Origin: Thermoplasmata archaeon
GTDB taxonomy: Archaea; Thermoplasmatota; Thermoplasmata; Halarchaeoplasmatales; Halarchaeoplasmataceae
Length of the DNA stretch: 55,624 nt
Assembly: GCA_046484045.1 (NCBI GenBank)
Contig: JAWOBZ010000015.1
Location: 1 to 55,624 of the forward strand
Direction of reading: 5' to 3'
Of the stretch, positions 1-44,207 are shown piece after piece; position 1 is the stretch's first letter, and each line of letters begins with the position of its first letter. The notes beneath the pieces were generated by a model. It was not told the origin of the DNA. It was given only the letters and a program-made list of their open reading frames with translations, and did not search any database. Position numbers and translations under genes: made by a program.

Positions 1-117
1 GCGACCTGTATCACTCTTTTCCCATGGTGGTTTAAGCTTTTTCAAAGCCCTTGAAAGATGTTTGATGAACAGAGAATCAATTTCCCTGTTCACTTGCTGT
101 ACTACCTTGGGGTTCAT
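1..117 (-). CDS. 5' fragment of a probable IS transposase (runs off the left edge)
   Basis: ATG at 117 opens a frame to position 1: MNPKVVQQVNREIDSLFIKHLSRALKKLKPPWEKSDTGR. The PW-x4-GR pattern resembles N-termini of IS5/ISNCY-type transposases. Not in the ORF track. Confidence 0.45.
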   Translation of the reverse strand, partial: MNPKVVQQVNREIDSLFIKHLSRALKKLKPPWEKSDTGR

Positions 118-192
118 CCTTTTGCTAGTGCATCCCAAAGTAATTTATAATTAGATAAAAATCTTATTAAAATAGTTTCGGGATGAAGCCCC
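1..192 (-). mobile_element. Putative insertion-sequence end (candidate TIR GGGGCTTCATCCCGAAAC)
   Basis: GG-starting GC-rich end 2-3 bp after the stop of 195..503, followed by an AT-rich promoter-like stretch and the transposase-like ORF. The partner TIR would lie outside the window. Confidence 0.35.
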
Positions 193-194
193 TG

Positions 195-503
195 CTACTG
201 GTACATCATGTCCGTGCTTCTGTTCTCTTCCTTTTTCTTCTTCCTCTTAGATTTTTTATGTTTGACCGCCCTCTCCTGCGATGGGTTCGTTCCGTGAAAA
301 GAAACGTCGGTCCTTTTCAATCTTAGGTAGGTCTTATCCGGCAGGGGTTCCATCTCCACGATCCCCCTAGAAGCTAGACCTTTAGCCACCCTCTTCACCT
401 TCTTTTCAGATATGTTCAATTCGCGGGCTGCATCTTCGACGGTCACGGGTCTACCCTCCATGAGAAGTCTGATCAACTTAGCTTCCAGAGAATCGCTATC
501 CAT
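195..503 (-). CDS. Winged-helix protein with basic tail and C-terminal MYQ
   Basis: HTH-like segment VTVEDAARELNISEKKVKRVAKGLASRGIV; Lys/Arg-rich tail; ends ...DMMYQ. Confidence 0.7.
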   Translation of the reverse strand: MDSDSLEAKLIRLLMEGRPVTVEDAARELNISEKKVKRVAKGLASRGIVEMEPLPDKTYLRLKRTDVSFHGTNPSQERAVKHKKSKRKKKKEENRSTDMMYQ

Positions 504-38982: not shown

Positions 38983-39924
38983 ATGAGCCAAGAAAAAATA
39001 GAAGAGTTGCCAGGAGTAGGACCCGCAACTGCAGAAAAGCTCATAGAAGCAGGCTATAAAGATTATCTATCTATAGCAGTCGAATCACCGAGAGTTCTAG
39101 CGGACGTAGCAGAGCTCGGAGAAACGACGGCGGCTAAAATAATCAACGCTGCGAAAAGAGCGGCAGACATCGGCGGGTTCGAAACAGGCGACCAAGTGCT
39201 AGAGAAAAGAAAAGAGATCGGAAAATTGACGACCAGTGCGAAGGCCTTCGACGACCTAATGGGCGGAGGCATCGAAACCCGTTCTATCACCGAGTTCTTC
39301 GGTGAGTACGGTTCAGGTAAAACACAGTTCGTGCATCAGCTCGCGGTGAACACCACCATGCCTATAGAAGACGGAGGGCTGGACGGAGAAGTGGTGATCA
39401 TAGATACCGAGAACAGTTTTAGACCGGAGAGGATCATCCAGATCTCTGAAGCTATGGAGTTGGACCCCACGGAAGTGCTCTCCAAAATACACATCGCCAG
39501 GGCGTTCAATGCACACCACCAGATGCTGCTAGCGGAAAAAGCGCTGGAGATGGCCGAGGAGAACCCGATCAGGTTGTTGGTGGTTGATTCCTTGACATCT
39601 CATTTCAGAGCGGAGTACGTGGGACGTGGGGCACTAGCCGAAAGACAGCAGACGTTGAACAAACATCTACACAAGCTGTTAAAATTCGGTGACAGGTTCA
39701 ACGCAGCTATAGTCGTAACGAATCAAGTGGCAGCAAATCCAGATCAATTCTTCGGAGATCCAACAAGACCGATAGGAGGTCATATACTCGGTCACACTGC
39801 TACCTTCAGGATCTACCTGAGGAAGAGCAAGGGGAACAAGAGGATAACGAGACTGGTCGATTCACCGAATCTACCCGATGGAGAAGCTGTCGTCACGATA
39901 GAAGAAGGTGGAGTAAGAGGTTAG
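38983..39924 (+). CDS. radA: DNA recombinase RadA
   Basis: N-terminal HhH LPGVG; GEYGSGKTQ; [11 protein letters not shown]; PIGGHILGH; no intein. Confidence 0.97.
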
Positions 39925-39963
39925 ATCAAATGACAATTTAACAGAATAAAACAGAACGAAAAA

Positions 39964-39987
39964 CTTTTCACCCTCCTTTCTTTTTTT
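39964..39987 (+). terminator. C/T-rich oligo-T terminator after radA
   Basis: CTTTTCACCCTCCTTTCTTTTTTT about 40 bp after the stop. Confidence 0.5.
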
Positions 39988-40130
39988 AAGTATGACAAAT
40001 TTTGTAAGACAAAATATCTGTTTGGAAAGACAACATTTATTACTAATATTAGATACTATATAAAACTTAGGAGTATATATCAACACATATGGGATAAAAT
40101 ATATATTCCCCTCAAAAAATTTTTAGACTC

Positions 40131-40238
40131 AGGGGATCCCTCCTAATTTTCTAAGGGGGATTTAATCGGGCTAGTCGGTTAGAGTGCATCCCATCCCACC
40201 ATCCTTCCATTCTAGCCCACCCCTCTTTTTTTTCTTTT
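40131..40238 (+). ncRNA. Candidate ~100-nt structured small RNA
   Basis: Upstream BRE/TATA-like GATAAAATATATA (40093-40105). Stems AGGGG/CCCCT, ATCCCTC/GGGGGAT and GGGCTAG/CTAGCCC; T8 tract at the end; no ORF. Confidence 0.5.
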
Positions 40239-40302
40239 AAACCCGTGAAAATAACTTTAGATAAATTATCAGTAGAAAGAAAAAGCTCATTGCTGACAAT
40301 CT

Positions 40303-41316
40303 TCACAGATATTGTGTATAGATTATTATACCGATCAACACTGCAAGAAGGGATATCCAGATTATAACAGCTATCCTAGTGGACTTCTTCGCCTTATCCG
40401 CTTCCCACCACTCCCTGGGCTCTATTCCCTGTACTAAAAATGTCAATACTCCTGACAAATTGATACTGATAAGGTGTATCAGGAACAAAATGAGTGCACC
40501 CACTGCCATGCTTATATACCCTGCTCCGAACAACAAACCGGAAGTGACCAAAGTCGGTAAAAGTGCCAATGCCACCATCACGCCGATCAAGGCGGTGGAT
40601 ATCCCTCTAGTCATCGCTAAGGCACCGGCGCTCCCTGCGGCAAGAGCTAGAACGATGTCCCCGAAACTGAACGTAGATCTGGAAGTTATCCCCGCGGAAT
40701 ATATGTCGAAGGATACGAAGGCACCGATGGTGAAAGCCAAAAAGAAAGCTAAAAGGATGCCTACCACGTTGGCTTTTAATGCTCTGCGGAATAGGCTGGT
40801 ATCTGCCAAAGTAGTAGATAATGATAAGGCTACGTTCGGCCCCAAGAGCGGCGCGATCACCATGGCACCGATAATGATCGCCACGTCGTTCCTCATCACA
40901 CCGATAGCGGCGACGATAGCCGATAAAGCTATCAGTAAAATGTAAACTCTAGTAAGTTCACTCATATCCCTGACCTCTGCGTAGAGTTCCTCCCTGCTTA
41001 TGCCGTACTTGGTCTCCTTCTTTTTCTCTGCTCCATCATCTTCATCTTTCTCCTCATCCACCTCTTCCATCATGGGATAAGATGCCTTCACCGAAAGAAG
41101 CAGAAGACGGAACCCATCGATATGAGAAAATTTTTCCTGCAAAGTATCCAGTATACTTTGACTGTACTCCACCTGTACGATTATCTTCACCAAAACTTGT
41201 TTCTCAGAGACCCAATCGTACCAAAAATCAAGGACCTGGTCGTTGTCCTCTAGGAGCCTTTCAGCATCATCCTGCTTATCTCCCGAGATAAGCATTTCGA
41301 TCATACGCAGAGCCAT
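40303..41316 (-). CDS. TIGR00341/DUF389 membrane protein
   Basis: ISREELY, IIGAMVIAPLLGP, LIGVMVALALLP. Confidence 0.88.
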   Translation of the reverse strand: MALRMIEMLISGDKQDDAERLLEDNDQVLDFWYDWVSEKQVLVKIIVQVEYSQSILDTLQEKFSHIDGFRLLLLSVKASYPMMEEVDEEKDEDDGAEKKKETKYGISREELYAEVRDMSELTRVYILLIALSAIVAAIGVMRNDVAIIIGAMVIAPLLGPNVALSLSTTLADTSLFRRALKANVVGILLAFFLAFTIGAFVSFDIYSAGITSRSTFSFGDIVLALAAGSAGALAMTRGISTALIGVMVALALLPTLVTSGLLFGAGYISMAVGALILFLIHLISINLSGVLTFLVQGIEPREWWEADKAKKSTRIAVIIWISLLAVLIGIIIYTQYL

Positions 41317-41363
41317 GTTATTATCACGGGGTTAATATGTCCGGTGTAATAAAATATTACTGT

Positions 41364-44207
41364 TCATTCCCTTCTCCATCTTTTAAGGGCTTTGAGTATC
41401 TCGAAGGTCATGAGGAACACGCCGGCTCCGGCCAGCACCTGTAACCACCCCTGCAGTCCGATGCTGGCGAATTCAAGGAAATCGCTGATGAACGGACCGT
41501 AGATCCCCAGAAACACCATCCCGATGGAAAGGAGTATCGAGTAGAGTATGATCTTGTTGCTGAAGAAATTGCGGTTGAATATAGATGCGTATTCGTATCT
41601 TCTAGACATGATGTTCATGAACTGACAGTAGGCGATTGTGAGATAACTTATGGTGGTAGCCTTAGCGTAATCCAAACTCATCGACGAGTCCCATGACGAG
41701 GTAAGGGAAACACCGTTCCTCCCCATGTAGAACCAGAAATTACCCACCGCCAGTAAACCGATCAGCAGACCGAAGAAGATAACCTCCGCTGACGTGAAAA
41801 AGTCCAGTATATGCTCTTCCTGCTTTCTTGGGGGCGATCTCATCAATGCCTTTGAAGGTGGATCATAGGTTAGGAACGTAAGAGGCATTACCTCTGCAAG
41901 TAGGTCGATAGCTAGTATCTGGATCACCAATATCGGTATCGCCCACGGACTCCACCCAAGCAGTCCTATCGCTGCCAAGCCGGCAAGTACCGTCGTGAGT
42001 TCAGCACCGTTGGTCGTCATGGACGCTAGGACCGTCTTTTTTAGGTTATTGTATATCGTCCTTCCCTCTCTCACAGCGTGGACTAGGGTCGGGAAGCTGT
42101 CATCCAGAAGCACCAACTCCGACGCCTCTTTCGCAACGTCGGTGCCCTTCATCCCCATAGCTACACCGATATGAGCCCTTTTGAGAGCCGGGGCGTCGTT
42201 CACCCCGTCCCCCGTCACCGCGACTATCTCACCGTGCTTCTCCAATATATTCACTATCCTGAGTTTGTCTTCTGGATCCACCCGAGAGAATATGAGAGCT
42301 TCTCTCTTAGCCATCAAATTTGTGAGCTTCTTATCGCTCATATCCTTGAGCTCTCCTCCGGTTACAACCGGTGGAACTTTTCCATCCTTGGAAAGTCCGA
42401 TCTCCTCGCCTACAGCTTTAGCCGTGATAGCATGGTCCCCCGTCATGATGAATATACGGATCTTTGCCTTATGGCATCCCTCGACCGCCTCTTTCACCCC
42501 TTCTTTGGGTGGGTCTATCATCCCGACCAGTCCCAAGAATATCACGTCTTTTTCCACCTCATCCTGGGAGTAGTCCTTACCGCTCTTCTCAAGAGGTCTA
42601 TATGCCATGGATAAAACTCTCATGGCTTTCTTAGAGTATTTTTCATTGATACCCCTGATCCTTTTCTTATCTTCTTCTGTTATCGGCACCGCTTTTCCAT
42701 CTTTGTAGATGTGCTTACTTATGGATAGGATGCTGTCAGTGGCACCTTTCATAGCCAGCACGACCATACCTTCTGTGTCTCCCTCGAAAGCTTTTGTTAT
42801 CTCCTCGTGCTCGTATTCCCCCTTTATATCCCTCACCGAGCTCATCCTTTTCCTTTCAGAATCGAAGGGAAATTCGATCAACTCTACATTCTCCTTATCC
42901 TCCTTTGGAGATCTGGTCCCTATCTTTGTAGACATGGTGACCAGTGCGGCTTCTGTAGGATCTCCCACCGGATACCAGCTGTCGTGTGAATCGTCCGGGG
43001 CGTGGACTTCGGCGTTGGAAGCTAAGGTGGCCGCATCCATCATTATCTCGATCTCGTTTATCTGTTCCGGGGTAAGTTCATTCCCGCTCTCATCAACTAT
43101 GGTTCCTTCGGGTTTGTACCCTATACCGGTGAAACTGTATTCCTTTCCATTGAACCATGCCTTTTTGACCGTCATCTCGTTCTTCGTGAGGGTCCCGGTT
43201 TTATCCGTACAGATGACTGTAGTGGAGCCAAGGGTCTCCACAGAAGATAGGTTCTTCACCACCGCTTTACGATTGGCCAGCCGATTACTCCCCGTAGAAA
43301 GTGCTACCGTGACTTGGGCAGGCAGCGCCTGCGGAACGGATGAAACCGCTATACCTAGAGCGTAGATCAGACTTGTGTCAAGCCTCAAACCCTGATATTG
43401 AGCGATGCCGAATAGTGCTACGCTGAAGACGACCACTACAGAAGTCAGATTCCGCGCAAGCAAATCCAGTTCTTTCTGAAGAGGTGATTTGATATCGATG
43501 GTTTCCTGGGTCATGTCGGCGATCTTTCCCATCTCGGTTTTCATCCCTGTGGCGGTTACCAAGCCCGTTGCGTTCCCGGAGGCTACCGTCGTGCCGACAT
43601 AGGCCATGTTGTCCCTATCGGCCAGTAGAACCTTTTCTTTTATGGCATTGCTGTGCTTCCCTTGGGGCATGGACTCCCCTGTCAGAGAGAAATCGTTGGT
43701 CTTGAGGTTGAATGATTTGATGATGCGCATATCCGCTGGGATCTTGTCCCCTTCGTCAACTTTGATGATGTCACCCGGGACAAGTTCGTCCTGTCCGATC
43801 TCCTTCATCTTGCCGTCCTGCATGACCTTTGCAGGGGACTTGATTAAGGATTTCAACCTCTCGATTATCTGCTCTGCCTTGTATTTCTGGATAAAACCGA
43901 TCACAGCATTGATCAACACTATGATGAACATGGCTATGGCATTTTTAAAACTTCCAGGGTCGTTGTAATAAACCCCCAAGAATATCGAAATGATTCCAGC
44001 TACTATCAAAACCATCACTAATAACTCTTTGAATTGAGACAAGAACATGAGCCATTTCGGTGTTTTTACCGTTGCTTTCAACTCGTTCTTACCGTACTTT
44101 TTCAACCGTTTATTCGCCTCGTCCCTTGTCAACCCCTCATCGGTTGTATTCAGTTCGTCCAGAGCTTCTTCGACGGTCATCCTGTAGTAATCTTTCCCAG
44201 ATGTCAT
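41364..44207 (-). CDS. Type II-like cation-transporting P-type ATPase (paralog 1)
   Basis: TGES, DKTGTLT, KGA, TGD, GDGVNDAPAL; M4 motif is PQALP. Confidence 0.93.
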   Translation of the reverse strand: MTSGKDYYRMTVEEALDELNTTDEGLTRDEANKRLKKYGKNELKATVKTPKWLMFLSQFKELLVMVLIVAGIISIFLGVYYNDPGSFKNAIAMFIIVLINAVIGFIQKYKAEQIIERLKSLIKSPAKVMQDGKMKEIGQDELVPGDIIKVDEGDKIPADMRIIKSFNLKTNDFSLTGESMPQGKHSNAIKEKVLLADRDNMAYVGTTVASGNATGLVTATGMKTEMGKIADMTQETIDIKSPLQKELDLLARNLTSVVVVFSVALFGIAQYQGLRLDTSLIYALGIAVSSVPQALPAQVTVALSTGSNRLANRKAVVKNLSSVETLGSTTVICTDKTGTLTKNEMTVKKAWFNGKEYSFTGIGYKPEGTIVDESGNELTPEQINEIEIMMDAATLASNAEVHAPDDSHDSWYPVGDPTEAALVTMSTKIGTRSPKEDKENVELIEFPFDSERKRMSSVRDIKGEYEHEEITKAFEGDTEGMVVLAMKGATDSILSISKHIYKDGKAVPITEEDKKRIRGINEKYSKKAMRVLSMAYRPLEKSGKDYSQDEVEKDVIFLGLVGMIDPPKEGVKEAVEGCHKAKIRIFIMTGDHAITAKAVGEEIGLSKDGKVPPVVTGGELKDMSDKKLTNLMAKREALIFSRVDPEDKLRIVNILEKHGEIVAVTGDGVNDAPALKRAHIGVAMGMKGTDVAKEASELVLLDDSFPTLVHAVREGRTIYNNLKKTVLASMTTNGAELTTVLAGLAAIGLLGWSPWAIPILVIQILAIDLLAEVMPLTFLTYDPPSKALMRSPPRKQEEHILDFFTSAEVIFFGLLIGLLAVGNFWFYMGRNGVSLTSSWDSSMSLDYAKATTISYLTIAYCQFMNIMSRRYEYASIFNRNFFSNKIILYSILLSIGMVFLGIYGPFISDFLEFASIGLQGWLQVLAGAGVFLMTFEILKALKRWRRE

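Follow-up and report, generated by a model that had tools for sequence, protein, structure and literature searches.

A candidate small RNA of the Thermoplasmatota with complementary sites at CdrS-like regulator genes and ftsZ

What is encoded by the stretch of about 100 nucleotides (nt) that lies between radA and a DUF389 membrane gene on contig JAWOBZ010000015.1 of a Thermoplasmata archaeon (assembly GCA_046484045.1)? Positions 1 to 55,624 of the contig are the window of this analysis, and coordinates given here without a contig name refer to it. A preliminary description, drawn from the letters of the window alone, had proposed a stand-alone small RNA (sRNA) with a CATCC-repeat loop and a possible antisense function. 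We find that the element has the anatomy of a gene, is conserved, and carries helices that covary, and that complementarity to its loop recurs, on a consistent strand and covarying with lineage, beside genes for small ribbon-helix-helix (RHH) proteins and ftsZ. At a probability of roughly 60%, we read the element as a trans-acting antisense sRNA that controls CdrS-like RHH regulators and ftsZ; its transcription, its pairing in vivo and the direction of its effect are the parts of this reading that we infer from sequence.

In an alignment of 89 distinct sequences, a 17-nt loop motif of the putative sRNA, AGAGUGCAUCCCAUCCC, is identical throughout, GAGTGCATCC is invariant and the 20-mer GTTAGAGTGCATCCCATCCC is nearly so. 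The CATCC repeats emphasized in the preliminary description differ in their spread, the first two lying within the motif that is invariant across the phylum and the third (CCACCATCC) being confined to family f1, to which the window belongs. In most other lineages the f1 loop extension is replaced by a small hairpin (CCUU-CUGAC-AAGG or CCUC-CUAGU-GAGG), the 4-bp stem of which is partly supported by the alignment (61% of cells paired), and indels of 1 nt are present in the loop. The element occurs once in the 1.89-Mb assembly to which it belongs, which speaks against a repeated miniature inverted-repeat transposable element (MITE). BLAST against 41 relatives, 24 of them from the same family, recovered the region in 23 of these 24 (E ≤7.7e-9), all but a genome that is 61% complete, with weaker matches across the class; identity begins near 40152-40168 and stops at the T-run. 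A covariance model identified the sRNA in 117 of the 151 genomes drawn from the class, which the record titles give as Thermoplasmata, and in 99 of the 151 drawn from the phylum, and found none in several well-assembled families (e.g., 0/15 in f11, 0/12 in f18 and 0/9 in f33). The exact 17-mer AGAGTGCATCCCATCCC occurs in at least 120 stretches in the contigs of one genome per species, and nearly all of the 80 matches listed are titled Thermoplasmata, Thermoplasmatota or Methanomassiliicoccales. Some genomes hold two or three copies, or sibling RNAs that present the same loop on another scaffold. We found no description of this RNA in the literature, subscription-only papers and supplements being outside the coverage, and the predicted sRNA is a phylum-wide family new to curated RNA libraries.

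Some loci deserve separate mention. Genome G116 has two full sRNA copies, scoring 87.6 and 88.4 bits. At L235, L236, L241, L057, L082, L245 and L246 there are sibling hairpin RNAs in which the loop AGAGUGCAUCCCAUCC is closed by AGAG/CUCU or similar; their stems differ and in some genomes they occupy other loci. Three contigs with bacterial titles (L059, Lachnospiraceae; L099, Bacteroidaceae; L124, Bacteroides salyersiae) carry an sRNA of the Methanomethylophilaceae type and are probably mis-binned.

The conservation of the loop raises the question of what it might pair with. Secondary matches of both BLAST and the covariance model were repeatedly antisense to the 3′ end of a small gene, and by hand comparison 23 of the 34 secondary model matches listed abut the 3′ end of this gene, which we call RHH1. 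It encodes an 80-amino-acid (aa) RHH protein that matches Pfam RHH_1 and RHH_8, and the best NCBIfam model for these RHH regulators is CdrS (NF058555). RHH1 stands alone, with no ftsZ downstream. In the window's class a second paralogue, RHH2, lies directly upstream of ftsZ, as on contig C8 of the same genome (RHH2, 33496-33176; ftsZ, 33125-32121), and an RHH gene was directly upstream of ftsZ in all seven loci of other classes in which the next open reading frame (ORF) was read. The identity of FtsZ was confirmed at 356 bits in the window's own genome and at 364 bits in an other-class locus (cut-off, 295).

Complementarity to the loop recurs at these genes. At RHH1 it starts 0-50 nt after the stop codon, in the mRNA sense. 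In the class loci, the 120 nt after the RHH1 stop contain a perfect complement of at least 9 nt in 25 of 30 cases, as against 6 of 1273 control windows; in other classes, the 120 nt after the RHH stop contain one of at least 11 nt in 18 of 28 cases versus 1 of 1096 control windows, and the site there is in the spacer between the RHH gene and ftsZ. For the ftsZ-linked RHH2, 8 of 13 loci have a perfect complement of at least 9 nt within 110 nt of the stop. Related genomes are not independent, however, so that these counts and those on co-variation below overstate significance and are descriptive only, which tempers what they contribute to our reading. In the window's own genome, 19 contiguous nt of the sRNA (UCGGUUAGAGUGCAUCCCA) have their complement in the RHH2-ftsZ spacer on contig C8, where a hairpin divides it and its end is 12 nt before the AUG of ftsZ, and the RHH1 3′ untranslated region (UTR) on contig C26 has an 11-nt perfect match, GAUGGGAUGCA, 5 nt past the stop, followed by CUAGCCCGG. 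Exact sites are specific in two other families. In five genomes of family f41 the exact 14-mer GGGATGGGATGCAC is found 15 times, 10 of them in sRNA genes and the other 5 in the RHH-ftsZ spacer, one per genome; the reversed 14-mer is found 0 times. All four f4 genomes have three exact sites, namely, the sRNA gene, the RHH1 3′UTR and the RHH2 5′UTR, the last being downstream of a TATA box and ending 2 nt before the AUG; an FtsZ-like ORF follows RHH2 in both f4 loci that were read. An f3 genome has the exact site in the sRNA gene only. Leaving the sRNA genes aside, f41 and f4 have 13 exact sites, and every one of them has the sense orientation of the mRNA.

The sRNA and its sites also vary together. 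Type-B sRNAs carry GGCUGGUAGUUG, and the spacers of the same genomes carry a second collinear block, CAACUACCAG(CC). The f62 sRNA (GAUAGGCUGGUAGUUGUUA) faces a perfect complement of 19 nt; within family f1, the difference between UCGG and UAGG in the sRNA is mirrored in the UTRs; and in three families UAGCCUUGUCAG at the stop codon is the counterpart of CUGACAAGGCUA, which is specific to type A. Mismatches counted over 52 genome pairs comprised 85 transversions and, among the transitions, 39 that kept a G-U pair and 18 that gave A-C. Duplex energies of cognate pairs were 2.3-6.7 standard deviations below those of dinucleotide shuffles. The preliminary description had seen in the loop a possible multi-target antisense regulator, complementary to sequences resembling Shine-Dalgarno (SD) motifs and start codons. 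The pyrimidine-rich, unpaired loop stands and looks suited to antisense pairing, with long and specific complements at RHH genes and ftsZ; generic pairing to SD- or start-codon-like GGAUG is not borne out, exact complements of at least 11 nt being at chance level in the window's own genome (42 found, 37 expected).

Several features of the target regions are recorded here as observations in their own right. The RHH1 3′UTRs (e.g., L222-L232; G000, the window's own genome, C26:49330-49360) end in a conserved UCACGAU(U/A)ACCUCCCCCC followed by a U-run, and the GAUUACCUCC within this UTR is one base off the 3′ end of 16S rRNA, GAUCACCUCC. The f41 spacers at L353, L355, L356 and L359 carry CCUUUAGUGAAGG after the anti-seed, a same-sense likeness to the sRNA hairpin CCUCCUAGUGAGG; the two could be a shared protein-binding or structural motif. 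At L396 (G164 C11, family f35), an anti-seed, GGATGGGATGCAC, immediately adjoins the start codon, AUG, of a small and unrelated ORF (MRKEDMIRLHALLFQ...), which may be a further, lineage-specific target.

Is the element in the window a gene in its own right? It spans 40131-40233 on the plus strand and has its own TATA box and T8 terminator. The features are as follows.

40096-40107, plus strand: TATA-like promoter element AAAATATATATT, recognized in the sequence and ending 23 nt ahead of A40131, the first base of helix P1.
40131-40135, plus strand: P1 5′ strand AGGGG, paired with 40220-24 in the minimum-energy fold and near the predicted transcription start.
40136-40161, plus strand: insertion hairpin, ATCCCTC (40136-42) with GGGGGAT (40155-61), found only in G000 and G001.
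40168-40174, plus strand: 5′ strand of helix P2, GGGCTAG, paired in 98% of alignment cells; 4 of the 7 pairs show compensatory changes.
40175-40211, plus strand: 37-nt loop, unpaired in the fold, the 3′ part of which differs in length and sequence among lineages; CATCC begins at 40187, 40192 and 40200, and CATT at 40208.
40181-40197, plus strand (40178-40197 with GTT): invariant seed AGAGTGCATCCCATCCC, defined by the invariant columns of the 89 distinct sequences.
40198-40211, plus strand: family-specific loop extension ACCATCCTTCCATT, containing the third CATCC and found only in f1 sequences.
40212-40218, plus strand: P2 3′ strand CTAGCCC, in covarying pairing with GGGCTAG.
40220-40224, plus strand: P1 3′ strand CCCCT, from the minimum-energy fold and the comparison of P1 flank sets.
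40226-40238, plus strand: oligo-T terminator, T8 (40226-33), C and T4, recognized in the sequence; BLAST conservation to relatives stops here.

The TATA-like element, the stems, the hairpin, the loop repeats and the T8 all lie in the sequence as the preliminary description had them, and its coordinates are correct. A TATA-like octamer (at least 7 of 8 positions matching) was present in 72 of 99 distinct regions upstream of homologues and, in 56 of these 72 good matches, ends 21-24 nt before the first P1 pair; the 23 nt between the element and A40131 in the window therefore support P1 as it was first drawn and a start near 40128-40131. Most homologues have a run of four or more T's 3′ of the P1 3′ strand. 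The upstream neighbor, radA (38983-39924, plus strand; Pfam Rad51), has a terminator of its own, as had been supposed, in the separate C-rich stretch and T7 at 39971-39987, and the downstream neighbor is the DUF389 gene (40303-41316, minus strand). No plus-strand ORF of at least 40 aa crosses the unit, in keeping with the earlier view that coding on this strand does not account for it; a 51-aa minus-strand ORF (40151-40306) overlaps it. Although radA adjoins the sRNA in 17 of 19 family f1 loci, it does so in none of 30 loci of other families, and because this neighborhood is not kept outside f1 the sRNA is best taken as an independent gene. The neighboring genes differ between families, and there is no syntenic partner gene. 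Together with the conserved TATA spacing and the T-run, this bears out the proposal of a stand-alone RNA: the element is a predicted sRNA gene with its own promoter and terminator and not the terminator of radA.

The predicted fold is less telling by itself. RNAfold gives a three-way junction as the minimum-energy structure of the window sequence (−30.1 kcal/mol, z −1.26), but 21 of 200 shuffles fold as stably as the plus strand, and the minus strand has z = −1.59, so that thermodynamics alone does not set the element apart from chance. Since the fold energy is unremarkable, the reality of the element needed testing by comparison. The pairs of P2 include variants such as A-U (74) with G-C (18) and U-A (83) with C-G (6); the observed covariation score was reached by 0 of 500 shuffles, and slid controls were lower. 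Each of the 86 distinct flank sets allows P1 to form, from a purine-rich 5′ strand and a pyrimidine-rich 3′ strand, with lineage variants that include GGGGA/UCCCC, GGAAGGA/UCCUUCC, GGGAGAG/CUCUCCC, GGGAC/GUCCC and ACGGGG/UCCCGC. Judged from these alignments, both closing helices, P1 and P2, covary, and the covariation in related genomes that the preliminary description had called for is thus present. The three-way junction itself proved a local feature. It is due to the insertion of about 24 nt at 40136-40161, seen only in the window's genus (G000 and G001); outside that genus the sRNA is predicted as one long bulged stem (P1 and P2) that closes a large loop. Other genera have a GGGG(A) strand 3-6 nt directly ahead of P2, and the covariance model places the proximal GGGGG of the window (40155-59) as P1.

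The sRNA belongs to none of the Rfam families and is neither a tRNA nor a box C/D or H/ACA RNA, and the first impression that it matched no known family was correct. A gathering-threshold scan of the whole window with Rfam 15 (4227 models) gave 0 matches, a permissive scan of 39000-41500 gave three weak matches (E ≥1), none of them overlapping 40093-40238, and a scan of the RHH loci gave nothing relevant. ARAGORN reported 0 tRNA genes in the window, Rfam gave no tRNA match there, and the span between the stem strands is no more than 37 nt in the window and about 33 nt in most lineages; GGGCTAGTCGGTTAGAG has a superficial likeness to the 5′ part of a tRNA. Box C/D and H/ACA guide sRNAs share with the element a similar size, a terminal stem and, in many of its lineages, a CUGA. 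They differ in that a C box (RUGAUGA) is absent from every lineage of the sRNA, CUGA is lost in the window's lineage, where CUUCC takes its place, and, by inspection of the sequences, no ACA follows P2 (there is (N)CCCC/UCCC instead) and no two-sided internal pocket is present. Guidance of rRNA modification was rejected: the 14-mer, with up to 2 mismatches allowed, has no site within the 16S or 23S genes of G080, G096 and G088, and the 3′ end of 16S rRNA, GAUGGAUCACCUCCU, is only loosely anti-seed-like. We also discarded a kink turn, for which the UUG-UUA-GA / U-GA-CAA arrangement fits type-A sequences, because a plain 9-bp helix is an equally good fit and the lineage of the window does not keep the GA, and coding on the minus strand (a WDGMHSN peptide), the reading frames of which are not conserved; the likeness of WDGMHSN to frames in RHH flanks arises because the nucleotide motif is shared.

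How would such an RNA work? Its transcription would begin at a TATA promoter of its own and stop at the oligo-T run, and the long bulged stem of P1 and P2 would stabilize it and display the large loop. The invariant loop, (GUU)AGAGUGCAUCCCAUCCC, would act as a seed that pairs with a complementary anti-seed in mRNAs of the RHH regulators and of the ftsZ that follows, and this pairing could extend from the loop into the 5′ strand of P2. Depending on lineage, the predicted site lies 0-50 nt past the stop codon of the regulator (in the 3′UTR), in the spacer between regulator and ftsZ, or 2 nt before the start of the regulator, the spacer sites being close to the ribosome-binding region of ftsZ. 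Pairing might block translation initiation, alter the processing or stability of the transcript, or both. For a site at a start codon or before the ribosome-binding region of ftsZ, translational repression would be the simplest outcome; for a site after stop codons, altered processing or stability would be more likely. The sRNA would thereby be tied to the control of cell division. The broader proposal that this is an ancient, Thermoplasmatota-wide division riboregulator, one seed having co-evolved with moving anti-seed sites to set the levels of FtsZ and its regulator post-transcriptionally, is more tentative, and we would give it slightly less than an even chance.

Several observations weigh against control of the RHH regulators and ftsZ by this RNA. 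The regulators score below the CdrS cut-off of 100 bits (48.4 for RHH1, 72.4 for the RHH2 of the window's own genome and 35.7 for an f41 RHH) and are for that reason called CdrS-like here and not classed as CdrS. Within the own genome, over contigs up to C48, the RHH1 site has a duplex energy of −26.5 kcal/mol compared with −37 to −42 for many purine-rich coding windows; because such windows dominate, target ranking by duplex energy does not discriminate, and the chance-level number of exact complements given above points the same way. In family f6 the sRNA is present in 16 of 16 genomes and RHH1 in none of the 16, and the RHH2-like loci are without an anti-seed; the family's candidate targets with at most one mismatch were rejected as coding or repeated-element copies, none of them RHH-linked. 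In family f44 the model matches 15 of 16 genomes, the RHH query used matched 0 of 16, and the extra 13-mer sites are not RHH-linked. Two f1 genera are without the RHH2 site. The seed is invariant also where no target turned up, as in f6, and this suggests a further constraint on it. A kissing-loop presentation of the anti-seed was rejected as a general feature, the anti-seed being mostly unpaired in a hairpin in just 9 of 44 local minimum-energy folds. Eight metatranscriptome runs from two studies were found, and the contigs of four, compared over 39300-41000, extend over radA as far as 39969 and over some of the DUF389 gene with nothing in about 39984-40325, a result that counts neither way, since contigs of this kind do not reveal whether an RNA of 100 nt is absent.

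Other explanations were considered, among them that the shared motif acts at the level of DNA. RHH proteins bind short repeated DNA elements, and the 14-20-bp motif could be an operator that they bind at their own genes, thereby regulating themselves, and in the sRNA gene, thereby making it one of their targets, with RNA complementarity as a by-product. The tandem CATCC units of the motif would suit such binding, the f4 site between TATA box and RHH2 start codon is where an operator typically lies, and the varying position of the sites relative to genes would be explained. Yet the 13 exact sites and all RHH-flank sites examined share one strand relation to the mRNA, most sites are past stop codons and some lie between convergent genes, an uncommon placement for operators, and the complementarity reaches lineage-specific segments of the sRNA beyond the motif. 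Transition mismatches favor G-U, by 39 to 18, and covarying helices enclose the loop that carries the motif in the sRNA, and so we consider an operator unlikely. A role of the invariant loop in binding a conserved protein, as a scaffold or sponge, would make the mRNA sites secondary, for instance as competitors that titrate the sRNA. It would account for the invariance of the seed in family f6, where an RHH-linked complementary site was not found, and for sibling RNAs that carry the same loop on different scaffolds in some genomes; it would leave the long perfect complements at RHH and ftsZ loci in need of their own explanation, and with no syntenic partner gene and nothing protein-related found, we regard it as quite unlikely.

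Another arrangement would place the antisense RNA genes at the RHH loci themselves, the gene in the window being a paralogue with no trans target. Of the 34 secondary matches listed for the covariance model, 23 do fall on the opposite strand at the RHH 3′ end, and in f1 that strand has a TATA-like GAGATAT(A/T)TTATCGTGA and a short T-run. Such cis-antisense genes are nonetheless improbable: the copies score no more than 24-37 bits, whereas the stand-alone genes have 44-91 bits, the copies of f1 are without the P2 3′ strand, no TATA-like element was seen on the opposite strand outside f1, and the sites in RHH2 5′UTRs and RHH-ftsZ spacers are without sRNA-like anatomy. That the element is no gene at all, but the terminator or 3′UTR of radA, a chance hairpin, a repeat or MITE, a tRNA remnant or part of the minus-strand ORF, could draw on the ordinary fold energy (z −1.26), the tRNA-like look of GGGCTAGTCGGTTAGAG and the ORF overlap. 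We consider this very improbable for a single-copy element that is conserved far beyond radA synteny, with promoter spacing and helix covariation of its own and no hit from ARAGORN or Rfam, in which conservation stops at the T-run and the 1-nt loop indels do not fit coding.

How would an sRNA controlling RHH regulators and ftsZ compare with known systems? DicF of Escherichia coli (Rfam RF00039), prophage-borne and narrowly distributed, is an antisense inhibitor of ftsZ translation. Like DicF, the RNA described here would be a short trans-encoded RNA with an unpaired segment complementary to the translation-initiation region of ftsZ and a predicted part in division control. Unlike DicF, which it does not match in sequence or structure in the Rfam scans, it is chromosomal and phylum-wide in archaea, and its most constant sites are beside CdrS-like regulator genes and not at ftsZ alone. 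The E. coli antisense precedent for ftsZ is cited in the available part of PMC8303175. Among archaeal sRNAs, sRNA162 of Methanosarcina mazei targets a bicistronic mRNA encoding a transcription factor, according to the accessible portion of PMC3510493; as described there, it resembles our candidate in being an archaeal base-pairing sRNA with a transcription-factor mRNA as target (predicted in our case) and differs in belonging to another group of organisms, with no sequence relation detected and genus-level conservation compared with the phylum-wide 17-nt seed here. The halophiles offer a parallel on the target side. As far as the accessible text of PMC7439475 and PMC8406309 goes, CdrS is reported as a cell-division regulator in halophiles, and CdrS-type RHH proteins are the main known regulators of FtsZ-based archaeal division. 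The haloarchaeal cdrS-ftsZ2 module resembles the loci studied here in that a small RHH gene is directly upstream of ftsZ; it differs in that the RHH proteins here fall below the CdrS cut-off and that the RHH-ftsZ spacers are 50-170 nt long, as opposed to 2 nt in Haloferax cdrS-ftsZ2 (PMC8406309, accessible text). The cdrS-ftsZ2 operon of halophiles is probably regulated post-transcriptionally by a mechanism that is not known (PMC8303175, available part), and an sRNA partner of cdrS-ftsZ2 is not described in the accessible portions of the two CdrS papers (PMC8406309 and PMC8303175).

Judged by its predicted pairing, the element is an sRNA of the base-pairing kind, and its predicted link to the regulators of cell division is unusual in depth and specificity. 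Targets are known for few regulatory sRNAs of archaea, and to our knowledge no archaeal sRNA shows phylum-wide conservation along with the sites that it targets; if our reading is correct, this would be the first conserved sRNA-target pair of such depth described in Archaea. How division is regulated in archaea that divide by FtsZ is an open question, for which the locus provides a concrete and testable candidate mechanism, defining as it does an sRNA, a seed of 14-20 nt, mRNA sites and natural compensatory variants. The covariance model can also be used to annotate the sRNA in hundreds of genomes, including those of gut Methanomassiliicoccales.

Three further observations concern other sequences. 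In the own genome, the gyrB 5′UTR (G000 contig C73, about 5723, minus strand) contains a 13-nt perfect complement of the sRNA loop, GGATGCACTCTAA, about 22 nt before the start codon; it is one of three 13-mers in that genome, and a single such match is at chance level. At L090 (CP070767.1 696082-696398) the 17-mer comes directly after GAAAGTCCGGG, a string that resembles what we take to be the conserved CR-I of RNase P RNA, and the remainder of the locus is N-masked. Finally, a stretch of at least 71 nt with TGGGATGCACT is identical at window positions 100-210 (minus strand, around 137), G000 C89:50504 and C4:17871, and looks like a repeat at which the assembly breaks, one copy being close to where the window's contig begins and another close to the end of a contig.

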